NCBI GenBank assembly: GCA_030740765.1
Contig: JASLWR010000004.1
Coordinates: forward strand, 24,873 to 88,872
DNA from: Thermoplasmatota archaeon
GTDB taxonomy: Archaea; Thermoplasmatota; Penumbrarchaeia; JASLWR01
Direction of reading: 5' to 3'
DNA length: 64,000 bases
Both the position numbers and the translations under genes were made by a program. The notes under the pieces are model-generated. The model searched no databases. It was not told the DNA's origin and saw only the letters and a list, made by a program, of their open reading frames with translations. Positions 8,752 through 63,879 of this stretch are shown one piece after another; positions within the stretch are counted from its first letter, which is position 1; each line of letters begins with the position of its first letter.

Positions 8752-8772
8752 AAGTTGTGGGTATCATCCTCA

Positions 8773-8806
8773 GAAATATCAGTATGCACATGCATTCTGA
8801 TATTTC
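8773..8806 (-). terminator. 10-bp inverted repeat hairpin (gaaatatcag/ctgatatttc) in the spacer downstream of paralog C and upstream of paralog B.
   Basis: Perfect 10-bp stem with a 14-nt loop read directly; lies between the stop of 8879..13234 and the start of 4264..8751. Confidence 0.3.
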
Positions 8807-8878
8807 TACCGGATAAAACAACGTACAACCTGTATTTATATCTTATCCGAAGATGCAGCGGGAAGTCTTAAACCGAAG

Positions 8879-13234: not shown

Positions 13235-13390
13235 TCAATTCAACCTCTTTCCATACTGACCGACAGCCCTTACCGCCCGGCGTTGGTCTGCCTTTGGAGT
13301 CATATGATAACAAATCCATAGTCTTATGAATAAATAATGCTTTCGTTTGAAAAGGATAAAACCAGCACGAATATTCTCATCGATGCCGGA

Positions 13391-16300: not shown

Positions 16301-17620
16301 ATTGCTGACCTTAATCCTTTCCCTGCCCCGTATCCAATCGTTCTTTTTCAACTCACCCTGATATTCACCTGTAAGATCGGGAATACCAACCAGCTCCAGG
16401 TCATTCTCGACCTTGAAAAGGTGCGGAAAGCGGTCCGTTCTTACAATTCCCGTGATGGCAGCAGTACTGATATAGCAGTCCACCAGTTCTTCATGTGGGA
16501 ATGTGAAATTGAAAATTACTGAAAAATTCAACCACCACCGCTCGACCCCGTCCGTGGAAACCTTGGAATCGTCAACATTCAATTGAACGTGCCCGTCCAA
16601 GTCCTGATATTTGTAGAAGCGAGATTGTGTCCAGTTGTAGCATAGTGTAGCATTGGTAGTATTATAATCAAGGAAAACCTTGACCTCGGAAACCTCGGTA
16701 AGGTCCCTTGCGGAGGTGACATTCACGCTGAGGGTGTAGTTTCTATGACGGGCATAGCATATATTATTCCCGTCACCCTGTCCCAAAATGGCTGCGTTAT
16801 CGGTATAGGCCGTGAGGTCCACTTCCAGCCAACATGCTACTGGCGTCCCACCCTGGTTCTGACCAACCGTGAGAAGAACTTCGGAGCCGAGCGGAATGGT
16901 GGTTATCTCACCATGGGACGCGGAACTACCGGAGAACGATGGCCGGTTCATGTTTCTAACCATGGGATGATTCACGGATGCCACGAAATTATGGCTATTA
17001 CCATTTCCATTTGTCCTTACACCGAAAGGACCGGGGACACCCCTGGACCACCGGCGTTGGTAATTCGTACCGAACATGTCTATCAATATTCCACCGTCGT
17101 TCACGTATTTCTCCATTGAAGGGACCAGTGACTCCATCTGGTTCAGATGCTGGTTCGGCTGGTACTCGGAAATAATGATCATCCGGTAAATGTTCGGATC
17201 GAAATCGTTTGCATTGATCCCGCCAGCGCTTTTCTGGGTGAATTGTATTCCTCTGTTGTTCATCTCCCGGCGCCAGCCGTCAGACCATCCCTGGTGATCC
17301 CATATGATAAGTATGGCTCCCGAATCCGCATGGGTGGGCCATAACCAATCGAAAGTATTGATGATAAAATAACGGGAATGTTGGCCGTTGCCGTAGCCGT
17401 AACTTGCTATGGTCCCCGTGACAAAATAAATGCCTTTGTCACCAGCGGTACGTTTGTTGGACGAGATGGGCGGAGGCTTTGAGGGGCTCTTTACGTTCAA
17501 CCCCACATCGTGGTTTTCGCTGAGAAGTATTTCAGAGCAAATAGTAAGATATCCCGTTCCTATGAAACACAAAACAACAGCTATCGACACCACCACGGGC
17601 CATGGATTCGTTCTACTCAT
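13391..17620 (-). CDS. Giant single-pass surface protein, paralog D (1409 aa); same architecture, C-terminal Zn ribbon MQCHSCGNNYIAEIAKFPALVTCTVCQTQG.
   Basis: Long ORF in the track. Signal peptide MSRTNPWPVVVSIAVVLCFIGTG. Motifs FDASGSSDEDGDNLSYYW (PKD) and DSDGDGFSDGLERE. TM segment, then a P/Q-rich tail. Confidence 0.85.
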   Translation of the reverse strand: MSRTNPWPVVVSIAVVLCFIGTGYLTICSEILLSENHDVGLNVKSPSKPPPISSNKRTAGDKGIYFVTGTIASYGYGNGQHSRYFIINTFDWLWPTHADSGAILIIWDHQGWSDGWRREMNNRGIQFTQKSAGGINANDFDPNIYRMIIISEYQPNQHLNQMESLVPSMEKYVNDGGILIDMFGTNYQRRWSRGVPGPFGVRTNGNGNSHNFVASVNHPMVRNMNRPSFSGSSASHGEITTIPLGSEVLLTVGQNQGGTPVACWLEVDLTAYTDNAAILGQGDGNNICYARHRNYTLSVNVTSARDLTEVSEVKVFLDYNTTNATLCYNWTQSRFYKYQDLDGHVQLNVDDSKVSTDGVERWWLNFSVIFNFTFPHEELVDCYISTAAITGIVRTDRFPHLFKVENDLELVGIPDLTGEYQGELKKNDWIRGRERIKVSNLKVRYAGAPDIYPDDDYFDVRVADNNGSAWWDNESMGENIEINITSGNDTDPEEEYLITIENIPGTGICMTNLTFPLRIDADPPLFPVNLKCHANDFKDKETEHTNRAEMFVTWDPVEDHSSGLMGYYYSPVDKSGTGNGTFTNVTEVKIEKLNEEFAEIYVWCVDKVGNIGTAASSGILVDLTPPVFSNHTPEDGSWHNHTDIDCSIEIYDGTGSGVDGSTIEYSVSNDGMHGFDFWIPAWIPELNEPMVPNIKYVFQEGEENYIKWRTKDITGNGFVESPSYNIKVDTTPINFAKLISPQVEWYDHEEITTKILVNDIGSGVNPDSLGARISTSSPNDFGRWESVDVENISESGEDGFEITVTFKYAEGKDNYIMFRGTDMVGNLFTLSDKFNLKIDTSPIYFGLFTPDENEYADNEKVECFIQILDASSGVDPATVEYSVANGAGGTGMGGDEKIFGPWKKVVNVVAGNPTQVLIELEFDWGYDNFIRWRADDMMGTGLNISLPYRVWVNSRPEAAIASPDPGSYFRFDSEITFDASGSSDEDGDNLSYYWSSNVSVNRSIGFDAYFSAGLAPGKHTITLFVSDRHGYNESTKVKLEVISQVDFQRDSDGDGFSDGLERESGSDPYNGAISPDGEPDIVISESGGILGGGSSLFFVILGIVLFLTILVLVIIFIVRRRKKDEVRDVSVPIRSPMPQSMYGPAQHPYPQGQFIPVEQKGYGEMAQYQAAVMGMRGAQNPPLIQSIVPDISNTQYSGPNQVQQTQPQQLALYGQSGTGMTGSTAYSLPLFSTDQGPQNLDRMALPPGPPPSEDQGMIGAFTPTQMTAPDLSAQPALLPGVSAMENPFQSPPAPIPLSGEAPPAPPEPTTISPSSTSSLVLGVPPIDTSADSDLSQLDTYLTTLGGLSPPPEPTPSDVPPVPEESPVPPTNKITMQCHSCGNNYIAEIAKFPALVTCTVCQTQGVIESI

Positions 17621-18467: not shown

Positions 18468-21400
18468 ATGAGAAAAATAATGTTATTTACGGTTATTCTG
18501 TTGTTGATGGCGCCTCTCAATGTATTTTTTACAGCCCACCGTTCATCGTTTGTCTCTGACACCGGTTTCGGTTCCAATGACGGGAATAGCAAACTCCATG
18601 TACAAAGTGGAGGTAGAGATGCGACCGCGAATCCTTTTGATTCAGTATTTTTCGATGATTTTGAAAGCGGTTTCACGAATTGGACCCATTCGGGTGTCCA
18701 GATCAATCAGGAAGCCAATAATGAACTGAGCCCAGTGAACGCGGCCAACCTAGACGGCAATGGGGATACTCTTACTTCCAATGCCATTGATCTCCGGGGT
18801 TATGGGTTCGGCCATTTGGAATACGGGGTTCAACCCGGCGGAGGAAGTGATCCGCCAGAGGTGGGGGATGATCTGACAGCCTGGATGAACCTGCAAACCA
18901 TCGGCTGGCATAGGGTAAACATCAGCAAGGGAACCGGTAACCCAAGACCTGATTTCTTGACCGTGAACGTCGCGCTTCCCAAAACCGCTTTCCATGCGGG
19001 TTTTCAGATACGTTTTACCACTCCTGCAATTGAAGCAAATGCCGATGATTGGTATATTGATAACGTGCGTGTAAGCGCATCTGAGGGATCTAATTTATTT
19101 TTTGATGATTTCCCCCCAAATCCTCCCGACAATGCCAAATGGCCAGTATCACTGGGAACACCAGTGGTAAATACAAATGCCCAGGCCATTCCAAGCACGG
19201 GGAACTCTCTGAACCTGGATGGTTCCGGCGATACACTACAATCAGGGACCATCAATTTGGGGAGGGTGAGCGAGGCATATATATTTTATTTCTGGGAGCA
19301 GGGAGATGGAAGTAACGGCAACCGGGACGAACCGGAAAATATGGATAATCTCAAAATCGAATATTATATCGACGATCCGGCCCCTCTATGGTTAGAGGTG
19401 GAGGTTACATCACAGGAAAGAGGAGGCGACCCCGGCAGAGCGTTTTTCATGCTTTCCACTTTTTCGTTACCGTGGGACGCTCTTCATGACAATTTCAAAT
19501 TCAGATTACATACCCCTCAAGGAGATAATAATCTTGATGACTGGTTCATTGATGACATAGGATTGAATGCGGCACCCTCCTATTCCGTCCCTTTCGAGGA
19601 TAATTTTGATGACGGACAACTTGCCGCCGCGAAATGGCCCGGCGGGGACCGAAAAGGGTCACCCCAAGTAAACACCAGGGGCGCGAATGAACCCTCGCTG
19701 ACCTATTCTCTCAATCTGGATGGCAGCGGTGATACGGTTGTGTCAGAAAAAATCGACACGTCCTGGGCACCATGGGCCAGCCTTACGTACTGGTGGCAGC
19801 AAGGGGGAGGGGGGGACGAACCGGAAGCCAATGACGATCTCATCGTGGAGATAAACGTGAGCTCAGGGTGGCGTGTTCTCAAAAAACACCTGGGTGCAAC
19901 CGCAGGAACCAATACATTTACGATGGAGGAATTCGTTCTTCCCCAGGACGCAATTTACGACAAATTCAGGGTTAAGTTCAGCACCACCCAGGGCCAGAAC
20001 AGCAAGGATGACTGGTTTATCGATAACGTTAGCGTGAGAAAGGGGAAAGTAGAAAATCCTTCAGATAAGTTTCAGGATTTTTTCGAATCGGGGAACCTCC
20101 TATCGAACTGGGAAATATTGGAGGGTAATCCACAGATCAACGCGGACGGTCAAAATGAACCCTCGCCATCATCTTCTCTTAATCTCGACGGTGAAGGCGA
20201 CATGATTAGCAGCGGAGGGCTTAATCTAGGACAAGCTGCTACGGCTGTTCTCAGCTTCGATTGGCAGCAGAAAGGCGGGGGTGACGATCCGGAAAACGGG
20301 GACGATCTCTATGCAGACATACTTCTCATGAAGACGGGATGGTTTAACATCTTTCAAGCAAAGGGAGTGGACCAGGCCAATAACTTCTATACCAACTTCT
20401 CATTCGTGCTACCCCAGACTGCTCTCCACGGCAATTTTAAAGTCAGGTTCAGAGTAGGCTCCGCGGAAGGGGTAGGGAAGGACGATTGGTTCATCGACAA
20501 CGTATTGATAAAGGGTAAAGATGGCATGGGATTCAAAAGGGTGGGTATCTACAACGAGTATTCCAACAAGGAGAAGGAAGGAATCAACCCGGCGAAGGCA
20601 CTCAGTTCCCAGTTCACCGATTACAAACTGTACCTTTTCGATGACTACCGTTATGCAGCAGAAAATCTCAGCTCTCTTGATTTCTTCATCATCTGTGAAC
20701 AGGAAAGCCTGGCAGCAGGGAAGGCGGGGGACATTCATAACCACTGGAAGAATTCCATGGCGGATTTACTTAACTATACCGGAAGGGTAGTGGTGCTTGA
20801 CGGCGGGTCCGGAAATTCCAGACTTTTGGTGAGCTCATTTCTAAGCTCCACCGGTCATCAGAATATCCCGGGAAATCCCAACGTGGACAATGACATGCCA
20901 AATCATCCAATTTCCGTTGGAATTCCAAATATCTTCGCTGGCCCTTCGGAAGTGGCTCGTTTTACCGGCGTCAATGGGCGAGAGGTGATGACCGTGAACA
21001 ACAACCCGGTGGTTGTTGAGAAGAGATATGCACGGGGATCGGTGATGTTATTTGGTCTCGATTACTCCGAATGGAATTCGTTCACCGAGAAATTACTTTT
21101 CAATGCTTTAAACTGGTCTGTGATCAATAAGATCCAGGTCAACAAACCCACCATAGCAGAAAATGATGTGTATGCGGGTCTGCCGGTAATGGTCTCTGTG
21201 GATGTGAGCGATACCATCGGACCCGAAGATGTTAGCAAGATCACCTTGGAATTCAACGACACTGGCGTCAGTTTTGAATACGAAGATGGAAATGTAAATA
21301 AATTTGGCAATAATAATGGAACCGTTTCTCTGGATTCATGGCATACCGGAAAAAAAGTGGAGAACCTTACACTCAACCTTAACCTAACATTCGGGTGGGA

Positions 21401-24347
21401 CTTTCCGGTGGGGGTGCCCGTAGATGTCATGGTGAAAGGTTATGCGTCAATGGCCGATAATAATGAACACGAAAACGAAACCTTAGGTCTCTTTACCGTT
21501 AAGAACGAGGTTGCTTTCTTTGGAACGCCGGTGGCAAAAAACAGTACTGGGGACGTGATCCCCTCCGGTGGTTACTGCAAGGGGGGTGACGTGATCACTC
21601 TAACCGGTATAAAGGTTGTTTACAGTGGAACCGAGGACAAATACCCGCCTGACGAGCAATTTGACGTCAACGTCTGGGGTGATGGTGGTGACGACCATTG
21701 GGTGGACATGGTTTCATCTGGAGAGGAGATATCCATCGAAGCCACAATGCCTAATAGTGGTATGAATAATTATTCCTTCAAATTTAACCTGTCAGGTCCT
21801 GCCAGGGCTAATTCGGATCCGGTGGCGTTTTATTACGTGAAAATAGATAATGTCACGCCTCGTCTTTCGAATCCTTTCCCAGAAGAGGGGATGTGGTTTA
21901 ACAGCACCAATGTGAAGTGTAGTATCAATATCAACGACACCGAACAATCCGACGACCTGAGCGTGGTAAAATGCTCATACTCCATTGATGGCAACCAAAC
22001 CTGGTCCAATTGGGTGAATGTGGATTCGATCGTTGATGGTGTGGCGGAAAAGACCCTGACCCTTGCTCAGGGAAAGGTGAATCTCGTGAAGTGGAATGCC
22101 TGGGACCGTTTGGGTAATGGACCCATCGAGTTCGGCCCCACCCCCGTATGGATCGATAGCGAAGGTGTGGAGTTCAGTGATTTTGAACCTTTAGGCAAGA
22201 TCGAGGATCTTATGCCCACATGCACGATCAATGTCTCAGATAGCTTGTCAGGGGTCGGCGATCAGGTATGGGTGCGACAATCAACCAATGGTGGAAATAC
22301 ATGGGATGACTGGACTCAACCGGAAAAAACACCAAACGACGATGGATTCGGACTTTCATACCGAGCCACTTTGCAGGAAGGAAGTGGCAACCGCATCCAG
22401 TGGAAAGTTGAGGATGTCGCGGGAAATGTGAATACCAGCGAATTCAAAATAACCGTGGATACGGAGTTCACCATCCCCGAGGTGGAACTGACCTTTCCGG
22501 GGAACGGGACCAACACGAGTTTGAGGCCCAAGCTGGAGTGGAGCCTGGCCAAAGGGGGTGCAGGAGTGAACTTCAAACTGTTCCTTTCGCTAACGGCTGA
22601 TATAGATACCGATGCCGATACACCGAGAACCGAGACCGAGAACCTATCATATACATTTGACGAGGATATTGCCGATATGACCACCTATTACTGGTCGGTA
22701 ATTCCGGTCAAGGACAACGACGTGGGTATCTGTAAAAGCGGGGTCTGGTCATTTACGGCCATGGAGGGGACTCTACCCGAGCTAAAACTGCAATCACCAG
22801 GGGATTCGGACAAGGCAGAAATCCGTCCCACATTGAGATGGGATTTGACCAGGGCAAAGGAGGGCGTTAAGTATCGTGTCTATGTAAGCAATAACAGTGT
22901 TATCGATACAACAAACGTGTCAGGAGCGAAAAAGATCTTGGATGACAAATCGTATGAATTTGTGGAAGATCTGGTGGATGGCGAGACATATTACTGGATA
23001 GTGATTCCCTTTATTACGGAAGGGGGGATCGACTCTGATGGAAGTTGCCTAAGTGGGGTCTGGTCCTTTATTATAGATGCGAACTTCACCATAAAATGGG
23101 AATTTGATATTGCGGTGGAGCACGAAGCAAAGGATGCCGAGTTCGAGGTCGGGGATCACATGAACTTAACCGTAATAATAACGAATTTGGGTAATTCCCT
23201 CGACATTTACAACCTCTCCATCAGCGAAGATTGGAACTACACCGCTATAGGCTCCCTCGATGTAGCTGACAACGCTACCGGCGACATCAAAATATCAATA
23301 GTACTGCCGCTGGACATCACTCTTGGAAATCACACTTTGGTTATTACCGTTACGTCAACCGGCAATAACACAATAGAGACCGAAATGGTTTCATATGCAA
23401 TAATACAGCCTGGAGGGGTGAATCCTCATGATGACACGAACGAGACGGGAGGAGGTTTCTTTTCGGATATCCCCATGCTCTGGATCATTATCGCCATCGT
23501 GGTGCTCTTCCTGATCATCGTGATAATCGTGATCATCGTTAGAAGACGGAACGATGACTGGGATGACGACGAGGACGACGACGATTACGATGACGAATAC
23601 GACGAGGACGAAGATGAAGAAGAGGAGGATTTCGGTCGTATTCGTAAGGATGGAGCCTCACCCATGCTGGCAACTGGCGCCCAGATGGAACCGTGTACCA
23701 ACACCAACTGCCGTAAACCCATCCCGACAAACACTATGTTCTGCACACATTGCGGAGTGAAACAGGGCCAGCAAGCCGAGACTCCTACAACCGCTTCGAA
23801 GCCGGTTGAAACTGAGATAGAGATCGAGGACCTGGATGTGGAAGAGGATTCGGCCGTTACCCTGGATGAGCTTATGAACCGAGCTTCCCAGTTAATAGAC
23901 ACTCCCAAAAAGGAGGAGCCCGTAACGGAAACTGTTGACGAGCCGGATATAGAGGTCGTTGGCGAGGTAAAGGAAGATAAAGGACTTACTATCGATGATG
24001 TTACCTCCGTGGACCAGCTACTGGACATCATGGTAGTGGAGAGCGAGCCATTCGATGATGACGATGAAGACATTATCGAGGTCGTTGCCACCGCGCCCTT
24101 GGAGGAAGATGACGATGAAGCTTTACCATTACCCACGGTCTCCGCTGCCTCGCTTTACGAGGAGGACGACGACGAGGATCTGGCAGCACCCGAACCCATT
24201 CTTTCCATAGAGGATGTGATGATGGAGATCGCCGGGGAGCCTGACCTTGATGAACCCCCGGAACCGGATCGCGCACCTCCGGGCCTAGCGCCTCCGGCTC
24301 ATGCACCACCGGGTAATGCCCCGCCGCCTCCGCCTCCCCCGGAGTAG
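18468..24347 (+). CDS. Giant surface protein (1959 aa). Signal peptide, four tandem MAM-like ~150-aa repeats, ThuA/GATase1-like region, further beta-rich domains, one TM helix, poly-acidic stretch, Zn ribbon, acidic region, poly-proline C-terminus.
   Basis: Each repeat begins F(D/E)DxFExG and ends DDW(Y/F)IDN(V/I), with LNLDGSGDT in between. TM segment MLWIIIAIVVLFLIIVIIVIIV. Acidic stretch RRRNDDWDDDEDDDDYDDEYDEDEDEEEED. Zn ribbon CTNTNCRKPIPTNTMFCTHCG. C-terminus PPGNAPPPPPPPE. SD-like aggtgg lies 10 nt upstream. Confidence 0.85.
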   Translation: MRKIMLFTVILLLMAPLNVFFTAHRSSFVSDTGFGSNDGNSKLHVQSGGRDATANPFDSVFFDDFESGFTNWTHSGVQINQEANNELSPVNAANLDGNGDTLTSNAIDLRGYGFGHLEYGVQPGGGSDPPEVGDDLTAWMNLQTIGWHRVNISKGTGNPRPDFLTVNVALPKTAFHAGFQIRFTTPAIEANADDWYIDNVRVSASEGSNLFFDDFPPNPPDNAKWPVSLGTPVVNTNAQAIPSTGNSLNLDGSGDTLQSGTINLGRVSEAYIFYFWEQGDGSNGNRDEPENMDNLKIEYYIDDPAPLWLEVEVTSQERGGDPGRAFFMLSTFSLPWDALHDNFKFRLHTPQGDNNLDDWFIDDIGLNAAPSYSVPFEDNFDDGQLAAAKWPGGDRKGSPQVNTRGANEPSLTYSLNLDGSGDTVVSEKIDTSWAPWASLTYWWQQGGGGDEPEANDDLIVEINVSSGWRVLKKHLGATAGTNTFTMEEFVLPQDAIYDKFRVKFSTTQGQNSKDDWFIDNVSVRKGKVENPSDKFQDFFESGNLLSNWEILEGNPQINADGQNEPSPSSSLNLDGEGDMISSGGLNLGQAATAVLSFDWQQKGGGDDPENGDDLYADILLMKTGWFNIFQAKGVDQANNFYTNFSFVLPQTALHGNFKVRFRVGSAEGVGKDDWFIDNVLIKGKDGMGFKRVGIYNEYSNKEKEGINPAKALSSQFTDYKLYLFDDYRYAAENLSSLDFFIICEQESLAAGKAGDIHNHWKNSMADLLNYTGRVVVLDGGSGNSRLLVSSFLSSTGHQNIPGNPNVDNDMPNHPISVGIPNIFAGPSEVARFTGVNGREVMTVNNNPVVVEKRYARGSVMLFGLDYSEWNSFTEKLLFNALNWSVINKIQVNKPTIAENDVYAGLPVMVSVDVSDTIGPEDVSKITLEFNDTGVSFEYEDGNVNKFGNNNGTVSLDSWHTGKKVENLTLNLNLTFGWDFPVGVPVDVMVKGYASMADNNEHENETLGLFTVKNEVAFFGTPVAKNSTGDVIPSGGYCKGGDVITLTGIKVVYSGTEDKYPPDEQFDVNVWGDGGDDHWVDMVSSGEEISIEATMPNSGMNNYSFKFNLSGPARANSDPVAFYYVKIDNVTPRLSNPFPEEGMWFNSTNVKCSININDTEQSDDLSVVKCSYSIDGNQTWSNWVNVDSIVDGVAEKTLTLAQGKVNLVKWNAWDRLGNGPIEFGPTPVWIDSEGVEFSDFEPLGKIEDLMPTCTINVSDSLSGVGDQVWVRQSTNGGNTWDDWTQPEKTPNDDGFGLSYRATLQEGSGNRIQWKVEDVAGNVNTSEFKITVDTEFTIPEVELTFPGNGTNTSLRPKLEWSLAKGGAGVNFKLFLSLTADIDTDADTPRTETENLSYTFDEDIADMTTYYWSVIPVKDNDVGICKSGVWSFTAMEGTLPELKLQSPGDSDKAEIRPTLRWDLTRAKEGVKYRVYVSNNSVIDTTNVSGAKKILDDKSYEFVEDLVDGETYYWIVIPFITEGGIDSDGSCLSGVWSFIIDANFTIKWEFDIAVEHEAKDAEFEVGDHMNLTVIITNLGNSLDIYNLSISEDWNYTAIGSLDVADNATGDIKISIVLPLDITLGNHTLVITVTSTGNNTIETEMVSYAIIQPGGVNPHDDTNETGGGFFSDIPMLWIIIAIVVLFLIIVIIVIIVRRRNDDWDDDEDDDDYDDEYDEDEDEEEEDFGRIRKDGASPMLATGAQMEPCTNTNCRKPIPTNTMFCTHCGVKQGQQAETPTTASKPVETEIEIEDLDVEEDSAVTLDELMNRASQLIDTPKKEEPVTETVDEPDIEVVGEVKEDKGLTIDDVTSVDQLLDIMVVESEPFDDDDEDIIEVVATAPLEEDDDEALPLPTVSAASLYEEDDDEDLAAPEPILSIEDVMMEIAGEPDLDEPPEPDRAPPGLAPPAHAPPGNAPPPPPPPE

Positions 24348-52446: not shown

Positions 52447-55400
52447 TCAATCGAGAATTATGTGCCCATCCCCTTGAGGTACCATCTCAGTTGCCCGGAA
52501 ACCTACCTCCTCTGCCAAACTCTCCAGTTCCAGGTCTCCCAGGATCACTGGTTCTACCTGATCCAGTGCTTCAGGGGTGCCGATGGATATTAGAGCCTTC
52601 AGCGCAGCCCTACGATCTTCCATCTCCACCGAACTTTTCAACATCTTAACAAGAGAGGGAACAACCCGTTCGTCTTTCATTTCTCCGAGTACTTTCAATA
52701 CTATCGGCCGCGTTCCCTTTGGTACCGTGAAAAGAACGTTCGCCAGGGCCGGAGCCGTGTAGCTGTTTGCGATATGCTTCAACCTGCTAAGCGTGACCTC
52801 TGCCTCCCCCCTAGACTGGTACATTAGATTGTCAAGGTTGGGTTTAGTAATGTGCTCGAACACACATTCCTTTAAGGGAGAGCGGGCAATACGCTGTAAC
52901 AGGAACCATTTTATGTCATGGTCGTAAAGATCGCTCAATAGCACTTTTGATCTCGTAGATATGCAGGCACTGGATATTACTTTCCCGGGAATAGTATTAT
53001 CAAAGAACGAATCCAAATCCGTATCCGATACAAATTTTTTAACATATTTCGGTTCCATCTCCACCAACATCATGACCAACCCCTTGAAGGTGTTGACAGA
53101 CCTTTTTCCAGGGAGGATGATCTCACTTTTTTTCTCTGCAAACTGCCTGAGAATTTCTTTAACTGAAATGGTGGAACTTACTGCCAGTCTCCATTGCTGC
53201 TCCATGTGATCAGTTCTATTGTCGTTTGAGCCGGTACTGGCTTTTCCCGCCGGCGATCTTTCAGGTATGACTACCCGTTTTTCAGAATTGGACTTTTTCA
53301 CTCCTGGCATTTCCAGAAGTAGCTTCATATAAACTGACAAGACCCTTGCAGCGGTGACAGGATGATTGCTCGCTTCGGCCAAAAGCCCCAGGGGTCGCTC
53401 CATCAATATCTCGTGTATTTCGCGAGATGTTGTGAAGCGTATGTTGTGGGAGACAACGTTTCTCATCTTTAGAAAACCACCCTTCACCGCCACCTCGGAC
53501 AGCCTATAAACGTCGGAATCCTTTAAAATGTCGTAGAGTTTCCTCTTATGCATGCCTAAGTCCTTGGCAATATCCTCAAGAAGCAGTTCCTTTTCCACCT
53601 TTTTTCCCATTGACTCCTTATAAAGGTCCGCATAACGTCCGGGCCTTATCATTGCGTCGGTGATATGTTTGATTATCGTCCTGTCAGGGAGATTCCTTCG
53701 AACATCCTTTGAGGGGTATTTTTTGATCTTGATATCTGAAATTATCTCGTCTTTCTCTCCTGGGCTCTTCATTGTCCCCTTCTTGACTTTCCCCCCCGGC
53801 GATCCGAAGGCTGCCGTATTCTCCCGGGTGATGAGGTTCCCACTTTTCGGATGTGCGAGAATGGTGATCTCAGGTAACTGCTCAGGTAAGGATGAAGGGA
53901 GCTCGATCCTTATGGGGATATCATTTTTGCCCGGCTCCAGCCGAAATCCCTCTATGATGTTAATTTCCCCATATGCCTTTGAAGAGGGCCAGTGAACCCT
54001 GTACTCTTTTCCGGGCAGAATTACGGTAAAATCCACTAATACGTCCTTTTTCGCATCACAGTTGGCCGTGACGGGTATCTCAAGGAGCGTCCCTTCTGCT
54101 CCCTCAGCTTGATCATAATCAAGATCTAACTGAATGTTTTTTCGAAATTCTGCAACTGTCTTCCGGACCTTCATATTCTTTTTGTAATCCCCCAGAAATC
54201 TCAGGGTCTCATTAAGTATCCTGGTGTGGTTATTGATGTTGTTACGAAACCCGTCTCGCAACCATTTGCATGCCTTTTCCAACCTGTTCTCTTGTGACCT
54301 CATCACACGACCAAGTGTGGAAAAGAACAGATATAGATGAAGATAAGCCATATTGAAATTGTATATGTGGGCCGCCAATCCCTCTGGCTTCATCTTGCCC
54401 GGCAAGGAAAAATCACGAATACCCCGTGATACCTTATTCATAAAATACACTGACATGAGACCGAATACCATTGGATAGATTTTCTTGTAATCAGGAACAT
54501 ACTCAGGGCCGCCTGATTCCATTTTTTCTAAAATTTTATCTTTCAATATCCCCGAATCTAGCTGCCTAATGAAAAAATCCATGTCTTTATTGAAGAATGA
54601 AGTGTAATCCAGGTCCAGTTGTTTGATCCTCTCTGTTGCCATCTCAGTATTTTTCACAGACCTGTTGCTTTTTTTTATTCTATCATCGTAAGGGGCAAAG
54701 TGTTCGATCAGGTTTGACGAATCACCATCGCCTATCTTACAGTTTTTCATTATTCTTTTCACAAGATTGTCCATTACAAAGGCATCGGACTTTGCCTTTT
54801 TCGCAAACACCAGCCTTTTCTTGCCCTTGGGCATGCTTTCGACCCTTTTCTTTAATGCTCTTGTGTAACCTTTAATTAAATTCGATGTATAACGGCCGGG
54901 TGTTTCCAATTCTGGTCCGTTTTTACCCAGAGCTTGCAAGGAAGAAGTGTCCTCCATATATGAGCTTATAATGCTTTCAACGAGGAACGTCACTCGGCTG
55001 ATATTCTTTGCATGCTCCTCAAGATAATTTCTGTCGAATCCCATGTTCGCCGCCGTTCTAGCGAGGACAGTAGAATTTAATTTATTCATTTCGTCCGGTT
55101 CAATCAGCACCTTTCCAAGGTGCAAGTTCAAATAAGTACCATTATTCAGCTTGAGAGTAGTAAAATCCTTCTCATTTACGGCTTCAGCCACCTTTTCTCC
55201 ATAGAACAGGTAATTTCCGATTTCCCTTTTAAGGTCCGCCGATAGTCCACTAGCAATCTTCTTGGGAATAATTTCCTTTTCAAGTTTTACCGAAAACTGC
55301 CGGGCCCCCTTTATCAAGAACATGTACGGAAGCCTGAAAACGCTTAGGGGAGTCTTTTCCAGATCGATGTATATTTCAAAGCTTACGTTGACATACCCCG

Positions 55401-56703
55401 AAGGCATTTTATCATCAAGGCGTATCACCCACTCCACTTCTCCCCTTTCTTGAGCTTCCTCCCGGTTTACGTCCAAAACTTCCACCGAAGTGCCCACCCC
55501 CTTTCCTTTTATCGTTTCTGCGGTGATTCTCGCAGTAAATTTCTCATCAATCAACCGGCCTCCGGTCTTGTAAAGGGCGATAAGGTGTACGGATTCTCCG
55601 GGACAATAAGAATATTTATCCGTTGTGGCACCGAAAAATTCGATATCCATGCCGCCTGTTACCTCGATAGCGCCTTTCTCCGTTGCCTCAACATCACCAG
55701 ATATCTCAAAAAATAGCTCATAACTACCTTGGAGTAATTCTTGTGTATCCTCAACGAGAAATTGGTATTCTTTCGGAACAATTTCTCTAGCAGAGTTTGG
55801 CTCCAATGTTATTTTACCCAATGGGATCGAACATATGTCGTTATCGTTTTTTCGAAAGTGAAGTCTTGTTGAAAGATCGAGTATTTCGATGCCTGTGTTA
55901 CTGATCCCCGCCGTGACCGTCAACATGCCACCCGGGAGAATCGAACGGGGACTGATATCAAGCATTGAGAGTGAAATATCATATTTACTCGCAATGAAAA
56001 AAACATTTTCAAAACATTTTGAAGTTTTAACGCTGTAATGACATAGAAATATCTCAACCCCCATTTCACCCTTTTCTTCGATATCTGAGATATTCGCCAG
56101 AAATGTTTCCGTATGCTCTCCCGAAAAAGTTACTCTTTTTTTATCGAAATGATGTAACTTCTTGCCGTTTACATCGAAAATATTACCCCAAATATCGACC
56201 GAACTCTCTTTTCCGGAAGCCTCGAGGATGATATTCATCTCTGCAGGCTTACCCGGTATTACTCTGTAATTGTTAGCCTCAACCCCTTTGATAGAGATAT
56301 CTGGCGGAGTGTATGAGAAAGTTTTTAACATTTCGGGAAGGATCGATGTGTAGTAAACGCCATGTTTCAGAATAACCTTCAACTCGTGCTCATCGGTATC
56401 GGAGAACGTTGGCTCCAGACTCATCCTATGTTTGAATTCCTTCGTTTCTGGTACTACGATATATTTTTCGATCGATTTTACCGGGCCAACACAACTGATC
56501 TCAATTTTTTGTGTAACTTCGTTTTCAGGAAGAGACAATAAAATATCGATGGTGATGGGTTCTCCCGGAGATCCCGTTGAAAGTTTCACATCCCCCGTAA
56601 TTTCAGGTTTTGCGCTCTTCGTGAAAATATCCAGGTTGATTACAATTTCTTCGGCCCCTTTTCCCTTTCGCATGACCTCATTCCCTTTTACCCTAAATAT
56701 CAC
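52447..56703 (-). CDS. Giant cytoplasmic protein (1418 aa) with C-terminal HEAT / PBS-lyase-like repeats and an internal HTH-like segment; function unknown
   Basis: HEAT-like repeats LGEMKDERVVPSLVKMLKSSVEMEDRRAALKALISIGTPEAL. No TM segment or signal peptide. Convergent with the upstream wHTH regulator gene. Confidence 0.7.
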   Translation of the reverse strand: MIFRVKGNEVMRKGKGAEEIVINLDIFTKSAKPEITGDVKLSTGSPGEPITIDILLSLPENEVTQKIEISCVGPVKSIEKYIVVPETKEFKHRMSLEPTFSDTDEHELKVILKHGVYYTSILPEMLKTFSYTPPDISIKGVEANNYRVIPGKPAEMNIILEASGKESSVDIWGNIFDVNGKKLHHFDKKRVTFSGEHTETFLANISDIEEKGEMGVEIFLCHYSVKTSKCFENVFFIASKYDISLSMLDISPRSILPGGMLTVTAGISNTGIEILDLSTRLHFRKNDNDICSIPLGKITLEPNSAREIVPKEYQFLVEDTQELLQGSYELFFEISGDVEATEKGAIEVTGGMDIEFFGATTDKYSYCPGESVHLIALYKTGGRLIDEKFTARITAETIKGKGVGTSVEVLDVNREEAQERGEVEWVIRLDDKMPSGYVNVSFEIYIDLEKTPLSVFRLPYMFLIKGARQFSVKLEKEIIPKKIASGLSADLKREIGNYLFYGEKVAEAVNEKDFTTLKLNNGTYLNLHLGKVLIEPDEMNKLNSTVLARTAANMGFDRNYLEEHAKNISRVTFLVESIISSYMEDTSSLQALGKNGPELETPGRYTSNLIKGYTRALKKRVESMPKGKKRLVFAKKAKSDAFVMDNLVKRIMKNCKIGDGDSSNLIEHFAPYDDRIKKSNRSVKNTEMATERIKQLDLDYTSFFNKDMDFFIRQLDSGILKDKILEKMESGGPEYVPDYKKIYPMVFGLMSVYFMNKVSRGIRDFSLPGKMKPEGLAAHIYNFNMAYLHLYLFFSTLGRVMRSQENRLEKACKWLRDGFRNNINNHTRILNETLRFLGDYKKNMKVRKTVAEFRKNIQLDLDYDQAEGAEGTLLEIPVTANCDAKKDVLVDFTVILPGKEYRVHWPSSKAYGEINIIEGFRLEPGKNDIPIRIELPSSLPEQLPEITILAHPKSGNLITRENTAAFGSPGGKVKKGTMKSPGEKDEIISDIKIKKYPSKDVRRNLPDRTIIKHITDAMIRPGRYADLYKESMGKKVEKELLLEDIAKDLGMHKRKLYDILKDSDVYRLSEVAVKGGFLKMRNVVSHNIRFTTSREIHEILMERPLGLLAEASNHPVTAARVLSVYMKLLLEMPGVKKSNSEKRVVIPERSPAGKASTGSNDNRTDHMEQQWRLAVSSTISVKEILRQFAEKKSEIILPGKRSVNTFKGLVMMLVEMEPKYVKKFVSDTDLDSFFDNTIPGKVISSACISTRSKVLLSDLYDHDIKWFLLQRIARSPLKECVFEHITKPNLDNLMYQSRGEAEVTLSRLKHIANSYTAPALANVLFTVPKGTRPIVLKVLGEMKDERVVPSLVKMLKSSVEMEDRRAALKALISIGTPEALDQVEPVILGDLELESLAEEVGFRATEMVPQGDGHIILD

Positions 56704-58417: not shown

Positions 58418-58737
58418 AATTAATTTTTAGCTTAATGTTTTTTATATCGGGCCGACGTTCGCCTTAGGAGCCGCCCGTAGGCATTGCCGAGGGCGGCCAC
58501 TTCGTTCCGCACAATTAAAATTGTGCTCCGCCTTCGATTTCCGAGGGAAATCTACAGGCTCAGGGGTATCCGTAGGCAAACTTGCCGAGGATACAAATGA
58601 ATCTTTGATTCATTGAGTATCTTTGATACCCCGCAGTGAACGGGAGTCGGCCCTCTTTAGTAATATAATTTCGATCGTTCTCCAGCAACCCCCCAGTACT
58701 GAATACACACGAATCGAATGATAAGTGGGATATCACC

Positions 58738-60774
58738 ATGGACGAAGCCCAAAACGATACTGAATCCGATGACGGGTATGAAGAAGACATCCCAGCACCG
58801 AGACGAAGAGATTATATTCCATCCATCGCGATGGCGCTGATATTCTGTGTTGCTATCATCCTGGGATTGGCTCTTTCTCCCATATATACCTCCCAGGGAA
58901 TGAAGGCTTTCAAAAACGAGGATGCGGTTGTCAATCCCCTGCTCTATATTATTTTTATCATTGTGTTTACTATAATAGTCCTCTTCGTGGTCAAGAAGGG
59001 TAAACGGAGCTGGATCAAGTATTTTTTTCTGGGAGCTATCTTTTTTACCATCATAAACGTCGTCTCTCCGGTACTGGACGGAGCGGTTTATGGTGTGGGC
59101 GAGGATTGGGAAAAGAAGACCTATGGGGATGAATTGGCTGCCTGGGATAAATCGGTTTTTGGCGGAAACGAATACGATTTCGCCATTCATGCGGACGGAC
59201 GTTTTGCAGTTTACGAGGATGAAAGTGAAATATTCTCGTATCAAGTGGGTAACCCGGTGGATGACCACGCCGATATCACTGTTTTTTCGTTATCATCCAA
59301 TAATCGTGATGATGCCGTCGCGGTAGCTGTCAAAGGGGCCGGTATCCACCTGTTCACCATTGAAAATTCGGATAAGATCCTACATCGTTTTTCGGCTCCC
59401 GGAAACGTTTCAACTTACCTTTTCGATACCTTGAATAACGATAATTTCGAGTTTACTTCTTGTGTAATTGATAATTCGGGGAACAATCCAACAATAAACT
59501 TGACGTCAATGAACCTGGGATACGATCCCAACGGTACCGTCGTAATTGGCCCGCATTATTATTACGAATATTCACTGGAGAACATAACGAACTCTGACGG
59601 AAAACAGATCCGGATCGGTGGAGAAAACCTCACCACGGCCGTATTGATCCCTGGGAAGAACCATGGGTTGAGGATCTGTCTCTCGGTTAATACCTTGAGT
59701 TACTTATTTAGCCTCCCGGGCCTTGACAATTGCTCCACCGTGAAATTTCCCTCACCCCTTGGATCAACGTACATTCTTGGCGATGGAGGACAAAATGAGC
59801 TGGTTCTATACAATCGTGATAAGTTCGAGGTCTTTTCATTAAGCGATAACGCCGTTGTTTCCATAGCAAAGAAGGTGATGGATGAAAAAATTGATGATCT
59901 GGTAGTTGCAAAAGGGATAAAGGGAGACGACACGGAAGCCGTTTACGTGCTGTCCAATGGTAGGATTCATCTGTTCGGTCCTGATGATTGGAAGGAGGGA
60001 TATGGTTATACCGAAGAAAAGCAGAAAGGGGCAAGCAGACTTTCGGTAAGCGACGCGGATGGTGACGGTCACATAGAGCTGAACCTGCTGTCTGGTAATG
60101 TTGTTCGACAATATGAGATATCCCCGGTGGAAAGGCACATCTGGGTTTGGGCCGTCGGTACTGTGGCAGCTTTGGCCCTGGTGGGAGCCATCCGCTTTCA
60201 CCCCGAGTGGTACGTGGTGGACGGGGTTGGAATCCTGGTGGCAGTTGGAGCCATAGCTCTGATCGGGATATCCCTGGCAATTCTCCCCTCTCTGGTTCTC
60301 CTGGTGATACTCGCCGTGTATGACGCCATATCCGTTTACAAAACAAAACACATGATCGATCTTGCTGACGGCGTTATGGAAATGAGGCTTCCCGTATTAC
60401 TTGTGATACCAAAGGACGGCAATTATTCATTCAGGAAACAAAAAAAATTGACCGAAGAGCTGGATAGCGGCGAGCCCCGGGGCGCCATGTTCATGGGACT
60501 TGGAGATATAATAATTCCCGGTATTCTTATTGTTTCTGCTTTCACCTATCTTCCCGAAGGCGTCCTTTTCGGGATCAGCAAGGCCTTGGTGGTTGCGTTG
60601 GGAGCTTTGATAGGTGGCTTGGTGGGTTTTGTTGCATTGATGAGATTCGTGTTGAAGGGAAATCCCCAGGCAGGACTGCCACTCTTGAACGGCGGAACGA
60701 TACTCGGTTATCTGATATCTTATATGATCCTTTACGGTGATTTTGGTTTTGGTCTAACTTTCAGCCTTTTCTGA
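58738..60774 (+). CDS. Presenilin / signal-peptide-peptidase family intramembrane aspartyl protease with ~450-aa N-terminal extracytoplasmic domain
   Basis: Catalytic motifs LAVYDAISVY (YD) and MGLGDIIIPGILIV (GxGD) lie in polytopic C-terminal half. N-terminal TM segments, then a large domain with Ca-binding-like DADGDGH. Confidence 0.7.
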   Translation: MDEAQNDTESDDGYEEDIPAPRRRDYIPSIAMALIFCVAIILGLALSPIYTSQGMKAFKNEDAVVNPLLYIIFIIVFTIIVLFVVKKGKRSWIKYFFLGAIFFTIINVVSPVLDGAVYGVGEDWEKKTYGDELAAWDKSVFGGNEYDFAIHADGRFAVYEDESEIFSYQVGNPVDDHADITVFSLSSNNRDDAVAVAVKGAGIHLFTIENSDKILHRFSAPGNVSTYLFDTLNNDNFEFTSCVIDNSGNNPTINLTSMNLGYDPNGTVVIGPHYYYEYSLENITNSDGKQIRIGGENLTTAVLIPGKNHGLRICLSVNTLSYLFSLPGLDNCSTVKFPSPLGSTYILGDGGQNELVLYNRDKFEVFSLSDNAVVSIAKKVMDEKIDDLVVAKGIKGDDTEAVYVLSNGRIHLFGPDDWKEGYGYTEEKQKGASRLSVSDADGDGHIELNLLSGNVVRQYEISPVERHIWVWAVGTVAALALVGAIRFHPEWYVVDGVGILVAVGAIALIGISLAILPSLVLLVILAVYDAISVYKTKHMIDLADGVMEMRLPVLLVIPKDGNYSFRKQKKLTEELDSGEPRGAMFMGLGDIIIPGILIVSAFTYLPEGVLFGISKALVVALGALIGGLVGFVALMRFVLKGNPQAGLPLLNGGTILGYLISYMILYGDFGFGLTFSLF

Positions 60775-60953: not shown

Positions 60954-61190
60954 TCACCCGCATTTCGGGCAAAAATATAATCCTTGGGAGGAGTCTACCA
61001 GGAGCGGGTCACCACATCTGGGACAGATGTTTTCCTGGGGAGTCGCTATTGGCGCCGGTGGGGCTCGGGGCGCAAATTGTGGTGAAACGGGCTCTGCCAT
61101 ACCTTGGAAAGTGTAGTCGTGAATGAAATAATTGTTATCGTCGATATATCCCTTTACATATTCTTTCTTGATGCATGTATTGATGAGCAT
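60954..61190 (-). CDS. Small zinc-ribbon protein (Pro-rich linker plus C-terminal CPRCG...CPKCG)
   Basis: C-terminus ICPRCGDPLLVDSSQGLYFCPKCG. The start may be the internal MAEPV, which would remove the overlap with the upstream gene. Confidence 0.45.
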   Translation of the reverse strand: MLINTCIKKEYVKGYIDDNNYFIHDYTFQGMAEPVSPQFAPRAPPAPIATPQENICPRCGDPLLVDSSQGLYFCPKCG

Positions 61191-61513
61191 TTCGGTCTTG
61201 GGTATAGGTTTGCCGATTTTTTTGCCACTTCCACTATCTTTATCTTTGGATAAGACCGCAGTATTGCGCTGATATCTTGAATCGGTTTGTCCTGCCGATA
61301 TTTATAATAACCGAATATGAAAAAACCAAGCCCGATCATAAAGAAAGGGAAGCCGCAAACAACGGTGAGCATTGTTCCATTAGACTTGTTTTTGGCCTCC
61401 GTATTGTCCTCCAGCCCATCGAAGTAATACGACATCCCCATTATGAGGAAACCTATACCAATAAGTAAGACTATGATTCCGATTGCTCTGTATACGAAGC
61501 CGGGTTTTGCCAT
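61154..61513 (-). CDS. Small membrane protein (two TM helices)
   Basis: Hydrophobic segments AIGIIVLLIGIGFLIMGM and VVCGFPFFMIGLGFFIFGYY. Confidence 0.45.
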   Translation of the reverse strand: MAKPGFVYRAIGIIVLLIGIGFLIMGMSYYFDGLEDNTEAKNKSNGTMLTVVCGFPFFMIGLGFFIFGYYKYRQDKPIQDISAILRSYPKIKIVEVAKKSANLYPRPKCSSIHASRKNM

Positions 61514-61606
61514 AGATAATTACCTGATCCCTATCTAGTACCTCAAGATGTTTTATGAGATCTTACAGGTTTGGCCCGATGTTGGATCGGGGAGTTTATG
61601 ATCGGA

Positions 61607-62242
61607 TTACAGTGGTTTCCCGCAGCCTTTGCAGAATTTATTCCCAGGTGGGGATTGTGAGCCGCAGGCCCCGCAAAATACACCGCCACCACCAGAAGCT
61701 CCTGCTCCCTGTCCCATGACTGAGCCCATCTGCTGGGCCATCATCTTGTATTCCTCCATTTTCTGGGATTTCTTTTGCTGTTCGATAAGCTCGCTCATGC
61801 GGGATTTCACCTGGACCGGATTAGCGACATTTAACCAGGCGACCTCGTATGCTAGAACTCCCATTCCCCTAACTCCTCCTCCACCTGCGGTGTTAAAGCC
61901 TATCATTCCAGCGCCAAATATCCTTGCAAGGAATGGCCGTAGAACCACCGTATCGGTGATCCTGTCATAGGGAGCTTCTTTGAAAGTTTTGCTTAGAATT
62001 CCTGTTTGTGAAATGACCCTTTTATTGGTTGCCGCATATGTCGTGTGTTTCAACATTGCCATTATGACAAAAACAAAAACACCAATGAAGATTGCGTAAC
62101 TTACCAAGCAAATCGCACCGACACCAATATCACCAGCCATAAGATAAATTGAGTATATCAATGCAAATATCGTTACCACAAATAGTGCCGCGAGTCTCGT
62201 CATAATGGATATAAATATGTGGGGCCCCGTTCCCAACCCCAC
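61607..62242 (-). CDS. Membrane protein with bacterial-type PH (bPH_2/YdbS-like) domain and C-terminal zinc ribbon
   Basis: Two N-terminal TM helices. YATNKRVISQTGILSKTFKEAPYDRITDTVV is typical of bPH_2. Gly-rich linker, then CGACGSQSPPGNKFCKGCGKPL. Confidence 0.6.
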   Translation of the reverse strand: MGLGTGPHIFISIMTRLAALFVVTIFALIYSIYLMAGDIGVGAICLVSYAIFIGVFVFVIMAMLKHTTYAATNKRVISQTGILSKTFKEAPYDRITDTVVLRPFLARIFGAGMIGFNTAGGGGVRGMGVLAYEVAWLNVANPVQVKSRMSELIEQQKKSQKMEEYKMMAQQMGSVMGQGAGASGGGGVFCGACGSQSPPGNKFCKGCGKPL

Positions 62243-62603: not shown

Positions 62604-62942
62604 ATGCCATCCCCGGGGAACGCAGCTTCGGATCAGATATTGGGCCTGGAACCCAATGTCTTCTGGGCAGCACTCTTATTTCTACTTGTGCTGGTGGCAG
62701 TATCCTGCTTTTTCATCTACAGGTATCTTTCACGTCGAAAAAGAGGCCTGGCAGAGAATCCGGAAGAGGATCCATTTGAACGGGAAATGGGGCCGTATGG
62801 GGTCTATGACGACAGGGCTCTTATCTCCCGGAAAGTGGATCGTACGACGAAAAAGATGCAGAGGCTGCTGAGTTCCGGCTCAGCTAAGGACGCTAGATTT
62901 CTGAAAATGGACACACGGAAGAGGAAATTACGACGAAAATGA
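62604..62942 (+). CDS. Small single-TM protein with basic C-terminus
   Basis: TM segment FWAALLFLLVLVAVSCFFIY followed by a K/R-rich tail. Confidence 0.4.
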   Translation: MPSPGNAASDQILGLEPNVFWAALLFLLVLVAVSCFFIYRYLSRRKRGLAENPEEDPFEREMGPYGVYDDRALISRKVDRTTKKMQRLLSSGSAKDARFLKMDTRKRKLRRK

Positions 62943-63006: not shown

Positions 63007-63879
63007 ATGGCGCTGATACCCCTTTTCTTCCCGGACTGCGTCGTTGCCATCGGAGTGGGCGACGAGGCGAGCAAGCGAGAATGGAAAGCCTCCGGTTTCC
63101 TTTACGGGCATCTGTCCGATGTAAATGGCTCGGGAGAAAAAAAATACCGGATCTATCTGGTCACGAACCGCCACGTCATAGACGATATAAGGGAATCCCA
63201 CATTTATCTAAGGTTCAATCCGCAGGAGATGGACGAGCCGGTGCACGATTACAATCTCCCATTCTATGACAAGGAGGGGAAAAGCGTATGGGTAGCACAC
63301 CCGGACCCGGATATCGACGTCGCCGTTACCAATATAAACTACATGATGCTGCGTGAACACGCAATGCAGGTGAATTTCTTCAGGAGCGATGTGCACGCGG
63401 CGGGGACAGGGAAACTCGTTGAATTGGGTACCATGGAGGGGGACTTCTGTTACGTGCTCGGTTTCCCAATGGGTCTCGTGAGCAATCGAAGGAATACTGT
63501 AATAGTCCGGAACGGGACAATCGCCCGGATCCGGGGCACCTTGCTCAATAAAAACCCGAATCCGGAATATCTCATCGATTCCTTCGTCTTTCCCGGAAAC
63601 AGTGGGGGTCCTCTCGTTTCCAAGCCAGAATCCATTGCTATCAAGGGAACGAAAGCTCAGAGTTCGGCCTATCTTATAGGAATTATCACGTCTTCTGTCA
63701 GGTACAGGGATGCCGCTGTAAGCACGCAAACCAAAAGGGTCAGAATAATTTTCGAAGAGAATTCGGGACTTGCAGGGGTTCACCCGGTGGATTATATCGA
63801 CGAAGCCATCGACGAACACCTAAGCCGCTTCGGTGATCGTGGCCGGAAGACAGAGGTCTACCACGACCGGCACTCGTAG
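63007..63879 (+). CDS. Trypsin/chymotrypsin-fold (S1-like) serine protease, apparently cytoplasmic (no signal peptide)
   Basis: Catalytic-triad context: TNRHV (His), DIDVAV (Asp), GNSGGPL (Ser). Confidence 0.65.
   Translation: MALIPLFFPDCVVAIGVGDEASKREWKASGFLYGHLSDVNGSGEKKYRIYLVTNRHVIDDIRESHIYLRFNPQEMDEPVHDYNLPFYDKEGKSVWVAHPDPDIDVAVTNINYMMLREHAMQVNFFRSDVHAAGTGKLVELGTMEGDFCYVLGFPMGLVSNRRNTVIVRNGTIARIRGTLLNKNPNPEYLIDSFVFPGNSGGPLVSKPESIAIKGTKAQSSAYLIGIITSSVRYRDAAVSTQTKRVRIIFEENSGLAGVHPVDYIDEAIDEHLSRFGDRGRKTEVYHDRHS

Follow-up and report, generated by a model that had tools for sequence, protein, structure and literature searches.

Whether a large soluble domain can belong to the fold of a small intramembrane protease, what kind of domain it is, and what it might do there are the questions raised by one gene in the stretch of DNA analyzed here (the window: 64,000 nucleotides of Thermoplasmatota archaeon contig JASLWR010000004.1, assembly GCA_030740765.1, forward-strand positions 24,873 to 88,872). 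The gene encodes a homologue of PSH, the archaeal member of the presenilin family. Archaeal PSH is a minimal model for the mechanism of presenilin and gamma-secretase and is generally treated as a compact, stand-alone enzyme of nine transmembrane (TM) segments; to our knowledge, its natural substrates and its regulation are still unknown. For the window protein, we hold with very high confidence that a nine-TM protease of the PSH type has had its TM3-TM4 loop replaced by a domain of approximately 350 amino acids (aa), predicted to be a beta-propeller of the FG-GAP/integrin-alpha type. The features of the gene are listed below. Mean pairwise identities, here and throughout, were computed over a 12-member family comprising the window protein and 11 full-length homologues.

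58738..60774, + strand: whole gene, PSH-type intramembrane aspartyl protease with predicted propeller insert, 678 aa, stop codon TGA at 60772-60774
58738..58806, + strand: N-terminal tail, aa 1-23, acidic by charge count, predicted cytoplasmic, ending in RR before TM1; mean pairwise identity 0.30
58807..59082, + strand: protease core part 1, TM1-TM3, aa 24-115, from the PSH alignment; three hydrophobic stretches, with a KKGKRS loop between TM2 and TM3
59083..60135, + strand: insert in the TM3-TM4 loop, aa 116-466, a conserved junction AVYGVGEDW followed by a predicted seven-bladed FG-GAP-type beta-propeller
60052..60078, + strand: DADGDGHIE, aa 439-447, a DxDxDGxxE calcium-loop motif in the last predicted blade, in the hairpin between strands 434-438 and 446-452; lies in SDADGDGHIELNLLSGN
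60136..60771, + strand: protease core part 2, TM4-TM9, aa 467-678, from the PSH alignment (184 bits); mean pairwise identity 0.78
60319..60324, + strand: YD catalytic motif, Y528 and D529, in TM6, aligned to the YD of PSH; invariant in 55 insert-bearing relatives
60496..60507, + strand: GLGD catalytic motif, G587-D590, in TM7, aligned to the GMGD of PSH; G587, G589 and D590 invariant in 55 sequences
60679..60687, + strand: PLL, P648, L649 and L650, the equivalent of PAL before TM9, aligned to GLPPL of PSH; invariant in the 12-member family

The assignment to a protease family is the firmest part of the picture. Pfam model PF06550 (SPP, presenilin aspartyl protease) finds the protein at E=1e-68 with 232.3 bits, against a cut-off of 23.9, and NCBIfam model NF041679, the archaeal PSH equivalog, gives 288.6 bits where 125 is the cut-off, both in two separate stretches. 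The sole significant relative among solved structures is PSH/MCMJR1 of Methanoculleus marisnigri (4HYC/4HYG/4Y6K), with E=3.6e-61 for 4HYG, and here too the alignment comes in two stretches that cover TM1-3 and TM4-9. Nine hydrophobic or helical segments are present, counting model and sequence together. As the original prediction had it, the YD and GLGD motifs (aa 528-529 and 587-590) lie in the C-terminal polytopic half of a presenilin/SPP-type GxGD protease. A check for an equivalent of the PAL motif was positive: residues 648-650 are a PxL variant rather than a literal PAL, and MCMJR1 has PPL at the aligned place (PMC2947513). By these matches we place the protein in the PSH/presenilin-SPP family (peptidase A22, GxGD), and the intact YD, GLGD and PLL motifs predict a catalytically competent protease. 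It shares with MCMJR1 the nine-TM core, YD and GxGD, a PxL before TM9 and a long cytoplasmic TM6-TM7 loop, and neither protein shows a sign of needing partner subunits.

The two alignment stretches also place the soluble domain. Residues 24-109 of the window protein align to residues 4-89 of PSH (4hyc_A), which form TM1-3, and residues 472-669 align to 104-296, which form TM4-9 of the 301-residue enzyme. For this reason the soluble domain is placed, by alignment, as an insertion within the protease fold, in the TM3-TM4 loop. The insert spans approximately 351 aa (116-466), whereas the crystallized PSH has a loop of about 14 residues at the same place; the window protein also has a 23-aa acidic N-terminal tail that MCMJR1 does not have. 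The original prediction described an N-terminal ectodomain of about 450 aa following TM anchors. A large domain is there, although it is nearer 350 aa and lies inside the fold rather than at the N-terminus.

The objection that the soluble region is a separate gene, or the product of a chimeric contig, is met by the reading frame itself. From 58738 to 60774 on the + strand, the open reading frame (ORF) list and its translation give one frame of 678 aa without an internal stop, beginning at the first start codon available past the upstream stop. Because that one frame has segments of a single protease fold on either side of the soluble domain, TM1-3 of PSH before it and TM4-9 after it, a reading as a separate gene fails. 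A gene-model error is excluded: the refuting case named in the original prediction, an independent upstream gene, does not hold, as TM1-3 stand upstream in frame and the homologues are colinear. An artefact of gene model, assembly or fusion could draw on the public NCBI record of the protein, which is a partial entry only, of 384 aa (P0001, 'presenilin family intramembrane aspartyl protease PSH, partial [Candidatus Thermoplasmatota archaeon]'), and on a relative from Poseidoniales that is divided into two partial entries at a contig end. Against it stand the identical 678-aa protein, called as a gene on eight independent metagenome contigs (JGI, ENA), and an architecture common to 11 homologues and 55 cluster representatives, so that we give an artefact practically no weight. 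The 11 homologues, found by a full-length search, are 647-706 aa long, 42-78% identical to the window protein, and colinear with it across 95-100% of the length.

An insert that is an orphan domain was considered and rejected. With the insert alone as query, a word-index homologue search had as its sole match the partial copy of the same protein. The full-length query nevertheless gave the 11 homologues, whose inserts are 21-67% identical to that of the window protein, and the insert-only result therefore marks a limit of sensitivity. A negative from a word-index search on a fast-evolving domain cannot be read as orphan status.

To ask what the insert is, we built an AlphaFold2 model on the 12-sequence family alignment. 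The region from about residue 121 to 460 is modeled with 29 beta-strands and no helices, which agrees with the repeated beta-strand pattern first read from the sequence, and its mean predicted local distance difference test (pLDDT) scores, taken over blocks of ten residues, are mostly about 70-94; in the membrane part of the model, pLDDT falls below 50. In the model the strands form seven four-stranded blades in a ring. A Foldseek search of this region against the PDB returned as its top matches only seven-bladed propellers (the LGI1 EPTP domain, Lis1, BBS1/BBS9, and WD40 proteins), with E-values down to 2e-10. The modeled TM3 helix runs from 90 to 118 and the first strand begins at 125; the last strand occupies 455-461 and the TM4 helix begins at 468. 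The predicted propeller is thereby joined to TM3 and TM4 by linkers of no more than about seven residues.

The integrin-like calcium motif was also read correctly at the outset. SDADGDGHIELNLLSGN is present, its DADGDGHIE falls in the hairpin of the last modeled blade, and D439, D441, D443 and E447 are invariant in the 12 family sequences. In the model, this hairpin corresponds to the place where FG-GAP/integrin propellers bind Ca2+, and the DxDxDGxxE loop probably binds Ca2+ as well, stiffening the blade that closes the ring beside TM4. The window protein has one copy of the DxDxDGxxD/E pattern, and relatives have up to four such motifs.

The link to FG-GAP is made through inserts of a sister clade, because the window protein itself matches no Pfam propeller model. 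The sister-clade inserts score up to 71.6 bits against PF13517 (FG-GAP_3) and contain up to four DxNxDGxxE motifs. When the two sets of inserts were compared by hhalign, 297 columns aligned with 96.4% probability and E=1e-9. Aligned to itself, the sister clade shows clear repeats, with 98% probability at an offset of about 46 aa, and in the window family they are barely detectable, the probability being 29% at an offset near 45 aa. We accordingly model the insert as a seven-bladed propeller of the FG-GAP type, degenerate but with one calcium-type loop retained, and class it as a divergent relative of FG-GAP rather than as a member at the level of Pfam. Compared with integrin alpha and other FG-GAP propellers (PF01839/PF13517), it keeps the calcium motif in only one of seven predicted blades. 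The integrin alpha propeller heads a single-pass adhesion receptor, while that of the window protein, below Pfam detection, would be embedded in a polytopic enzyme.

Conservation is distributed unevenly along the protein. Mean pairwise identity is 0.78 in TM4-9, 0.70 in TM1-3, and 0.77 at the junction after TM3 (AVYGxGExW); it is 0.51-0.56 in predicted blades 6-7 and only 0.28-0.35 in blades 1-5. The insert is 347-349 aa long in ten of the twelve members, even where identity in the propeller drops to about 26%, and this constancy of length argues for purifying constraint on the fold. In terms of the model, the propeller would be tied to the core by two very short, conserved connections beside the blade with the calcium loop, leaving the other blades free to vary.

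The side of the membrane on which the insert lies was predicted from the distribution of charge. With loops set by the helices of the PSH alignment and the predicted structure, approximately 18 Lys or Arg residues fall in predicted cytoplasmic loops, against three in the short outside loops. The cytoplasmic sites are RR(R) before TM1, KKGKRS between TM2 and TM3, the turn between TM4 and TM5, the 49-residue TM6-TM7 loop, and the loop before TM9. The protein is therefore predicted, by sequence rules, to have the orientation of presenilin, with its N-terminus inside and its C-terminus outside (N-in/C-out), which would have the insert between TM3 and TM4 face the exterior. The composition of the insert is strongly acidic, its 53 Asp and Glu residues against 27 Lys and Arg giving a net charge near -26, and N-x-S/T sequons occur in it six times, once with an invariant Asn (N254). 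Its charge and sequons would fit a glycosylated archaeal surface domain.

The spread of the architecture was examined in an exhaustive HMMER search of 1.84 billion representatives of 50%-identity clusters, which found 858 relatives at E<=1e-3; the figures that follow describe the 150 best of the 858. Both halves of the core are present in 121 of these 150. An insert of 200-415 residues occupies the same TM3-TM4 site in 55 of the 121, and the remainder have 0-37 residues there, a fraction that describes a sample biased toward relatives of the query and does not extend to all PSH proteins. YD and GxGD are invariant in all 55. The expectation that archaeal homologues are usually compact thus holds for the characterized enzymes, but not for the sequence neighborhood of the window protein. 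In a set of GTDB species representatives, the 80 best loci encode mostly compact enzymes (from Thermoplasmata, Methanomassiliicoccales, methanogens, and Bathyarchaeia), and long spans occur in three.

By sequence, the inserts cluster into the window family, an FG-GAP_3-positive clade, a clade of 23 representatives, and smaller groups. FG-GAP_3 matches 12 of the 55 at E<=0.01, and the only other soluble-domain families that recur among the 55 at that threshold are the propeller-related BBS2, BBS7 and ITFG2. A repeat-level match (90.5%) links the 23-member clade with the FG-GAP clade. Named insert-bearing members all belong to Thermoplasmatota, as Thermoplasmata metagenome-assembled genomes (MAGs) or, for the 23-representative clade, Candidatus Poseidoniales; most are annotated 'hypothetical protein' or plain 'PSH', and the propeller is absent from public annotations. 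A Candidatus Poseidoniales (marine group II) cluster, P0087, contains PSH homologues of 688-779 aa with an insert of 340-415 aa at the same site, and one 90%-identity Poseidoniales cluster alone has 56 member sequences.

Two small groups of inserts, both from Thermoplasmata MAGs (P0042/P0047/P0084 and P0065/P0075/P0081/P0121), have no detectable similarity to the FG-GAP-type inserts. A singleton that lies beside them in the core tree (P0110, Thermoplasmata) had no BLAST link to the FG-GAP-type inserts, BLAST being the one sequence comparison made for it. Its structure prediction is beta-rich, with a mean pLDDT of 47.8 that is too poor for classification. Inserts in P0110 and both small groups are 288-351 aa long and occupy the same loop, and may represent independent insertion or extreme divergence. 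In a neighbor-joining tree of the TM core, insert-bearing proteins fall into three or four clades mixed with compact ones, a crude tree that does not separate a single ancient insertion followed by losses from repeated insertions. The insert-bearing architecture is best regarded as a widespread form of the PSH family in Thermoplasmatota, with marine and sediment archaea among its carriers. No description of the architecture turned up in full-text literature searches that paired presenilin or PSH with FG-GAP, propeller or Poseidoniales. The propeller ectodomain within the fold is new to description, and the enzyme family is a known one.

What the propeller might do is suggested by where it would sit. 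We tentatively propose, with the balance tilted somewhat against us, that it acts as a built-in extracellular exosite or substrate gatekeeper. Mounted rigidly on TM3 and TM4, it would be positioned above the outer opening of the substrate channel or next to it. A propeller is about as wide as the helix bundle. In presenilin-1 (PS1), the pocket for substrate and for DAPT is formed by TM2, TM3, TM5, TM6 and TM7 (PMC7248309), and TM2 and TM6 make up a lateral gate (PMC7248309; PMC13507816). It is because TM3 lines the presenilin pocket, and because linkers of no more than about seven residues lead to the outer ends of TM3 and TM4, that we would place the propeller over the mouth of the pocket. 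From there it could admit or sterically exclude single-pass substrates with an outside N-terminus (N-out), according to the size or identity of the extracellular stub, after which the nine-TM core would cut the transmembrane helix with the YD and GLGD aspartates. The calcium-type loop would serve as a structural clamp at the ring-closing blade beside TM4, the variable blades 1-5 would tune specificity between lineages, and the net effect would be a single-chain counterpart of presenilin plus nicastrin. Precedents for control by an ectodomain exist: as reported in papers citing Bolduc et al. 2016, nicastrin sterically hinders substrates and excludes long ectodomains, and the PA ectodomains of SPPL2 influence substrate recognition, discriminating between substrates (PMC12043953). 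The explanation as a whole, a propeller-bearing PSH together with a gating role, we put near an even chance and a little short of it.

Several observations weigh against that explanation. Models for FG-GAP, VCBS and other propellers in Pfam do not match the window protein even at E<=1. The placing of the propeller over the channel follows from connectivity only, as the TM part of the model has pLDDT below 50. The compact PSH MCMJR1 cleaves substrates in vitro with no ectodomain (PMC2947513), which means that the propeller is not needed for catalysis. The rapid evolution of blades 1-5 would equally fit a surface domain that is merely tolerated. Finally, among the homologues compared, no conserved neighbor points to a substrate or partner, and the downstream genes differ even in the one that is 78% identical.

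Two other functions for a propeller-bearing PSH were weighed. The propeller might instead be a sensor or regulatory domain, in which an extracellular ligand or Ca2+ bound to it switches intramembrane cleavage on or off through TM3 and TM4, making the enzyme a ligand-gated device for signaling by regulated intramembrane proteolysis and not a filter that passively sorts substrates. In integrins, FG-GAP propellers serve to bind ligands, the short conserved linkers could couple movements of the propeller to TM3 and TM4, and the invariant calcium-type loop lies directly beside TM4; in PS1, TM3 and TM4 shift together with PEN-2 between conformational classes (PMC7248309). Yet blades 1-5, at 0.28-0.35 identity, show no conserved residues on a ligand face, the homologue loci have no conserved neighbor that is a candidate signaling substrate or transcription factor, and allosteric control by an ectodomain has no precedent in PSH. 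We consider such a switch unlikely.

Much the same low probability attaches to a module for interaction with the envelope, one that tethers the enzyme to the S-layer, to surface proteins or to partner subunits, or that drives oligomerization. The propeller would then matter for localization or stability, not for choice of substrate, and would occupy the surface of TM3 and TM4 that binds PEN-2 in gamma-secretase. Propellers are generic platforms for protein-protein contact, most of the Foldseek matches are scaffolds, the surface-exposed blades evolve quickly, and both the neighborhood and related contigs are rich in giant surface proteins (with TSP3, PKD, NosD/beta-helix, and Reelin-like domains); TM3 and TM4 of PS1 are indeed a surface for docking of subunits (PMC7248309). 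A scaffold of this kind leaves unexplained why insertion should be constant at one loop adjoining the substrate pocket in at least three to four clades, and no partner gene is conserved nearby. The gating proposal extends, as a rather unlikely generalization, to a 'single-chain gamma-secretase' that evolved in Thermoplasmatota, the abundant marine Poseidoniales included, and whose own propeller would recognize or size-filter N-out ectodomain stubs, convergently with nicastrin and possibly under the control of a ligand or Ca2+.

Comparison with known systems sets out what such a gate would share with them. Gamma-secretase has the same catalytic fold and the same N-in/C-out topology as is predicted for the window protein, and places a large extracellular domain over an enzyme whose substrates span the membrane once, N-out, and have short ectodomains, which is analogous to the steric or exosite role proposed here. 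Nicastrin, however, is a separate single-pass subunit with an aminopeptidase/transferrin-receptor-like fold, whereas the window domain is a predicted propeller within the protease chain, inserted at a loop whose flanking helices bind PEN-2 in PS1. No homology was detected between nicastrin and the insert, and the likeness is one of analogy only. No evidence of endoproteolytic maturation was seen for the window protein. The SPPL2a/b/c proteins resemble it in being GxGD proteases to which a luminal or extracellular domain is fused, one that affects substrate recognition (PMC12043953), but their PA domain has a different fold and lies N-terminal to TM1, rather than between TM3 and TM4, and Pfam finds no PA domain in the window protein. 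SPP and SPPL enzymes, moreover, have the opposite orientation in the membrane and cut N-in (type II) substrates.

A soluble domain between TM segments is known from a different class of protease. The site-2 protease RseP has tandem PDZ domains inserted in a periplasmic loop, on the outer side, with a reported role as a size-exclusion filter for untrimmed substrates. It is a bacterial metalloprotease of unrelated catalytic class, with the PDZ fold and a known site-1 protease partner, and its likeness to the window protein is in the placement of a soluble domain between TM segments.

The discovery is one of domain architecture within a known enzyme family, not of a new kind of system. It suggests that substrate control by an ectodomain arose independently of nicastrin, and it makes the question of PSH substrates and gating more tractable. 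The propeller domains are soluble and probably can be expressed, and could be used as bait for substrate discovery; compact and propeller-bearing sister enzymes provide a natural experiment on extracellular gating of intramembrane proteolysis. If the enzyme does work as a single-chain gamma-secretase, the propeller would be a direct handle on the first natural substrates of any archaeal presenilin homologue.

The PSH gene stands alone in its neighborhood. Close relatives share synteny in the block upstream of it, whose genes encode a giant HEAT-repeat protein, aspartate dehydrogenase and endonuclease III, and endonuclease III lies upstream of the PSH gene even in the homologue that is only 42% identical. 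The giant protein of that block (52447-56703, - strand, 1418 aa), which is part of it in all close relatives, has a C-terminal HEAT repeat as its sole match. As far as can be read from these gene contents, nothing in the context points to an operon partner, a regulator or a substrate. Features of its own mark the intergenic region that separates endonuclease III from the PSH gene:

58418..58737, + strand: upstream intergenic region, with a TATA-like TTTTTATATC followed by a folding element of approximately 205 nucleotides

The core of the element, 58449-58653, folds into multiple stems closed by GGGCCGAC/GUCGGCCC, with a minimum free energy of -99.3 kcal/mol and z=-6.8 on the + strand and z=-7.0 on the - strand. 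Ahead of the genes for the homologues at 78% and 73% identity (L092 and L001), the outer arms of the element are conserved, but approximately 120 nucleotides of its interior are missing or replaced. An Rfam search of the element matched no family. Candidate readings of the element are a structured 5' leader, possibly with a promoter before it, a small RNA, and a palindromic element able to expand.

Downstream of the PSH gene, on the + strand, are genes for a conserved 112-aa single-pass protein (62604-62942), which reads as an N-out stub of about 19 aa with a basic cytoplasmic tail, and, after it, for a Trypsin_2 peptidase (63007-63879), in which no obvious N-terminal export signal was seen on reading the sequence by eye. 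An N-out single-pass protein with a short stub is the type of substrate that presenilins cut. In the 73%-identical TARA homologue (L001), genes of the 112-aa type and for Trypsin_2 (10131-11426) directly follow PSH, and the small protein is 76% identical. That arrangement was nevertheless not accepted as support for a functional cassette of substrate, site-1 protease and PSH: the 78%-identical homologue has rpS8e, SRP19 and eIF-1A there instead, and more distant homologues have other neighbors. The absence of an obvious export signal in the Trypsin_2 protein counts against a cassette too.

Three small genes on the - strand (60954-62242) lie between the PSH gene and that of the 112-aa protein. 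Their products are a zinc-ribbon protein of 78 aa, a protein of 119 aa whose sequence suggests two TM segments, and a bPH_2 protein of 211 aa whose C-terminal part has a Cys-rich motif resembling a zinc ribbon. The TARA relative (L001) has none of the three at this place, which indicates a local insertion or deletion. Elsewhere in the window, three tandem and apparently paralogous giant ORFs of 1495, 1451 and 1409 aa (4264-17620, - strand) each have a bacterial TSP3 repeat, a calcium-binding type, near residue 1050-1090. Adjoining them is a divergent ORF of 1959 aa with a Reelin subrepeat-B domain (18468-24347, + strand), and all four probably encode large surface proteins.

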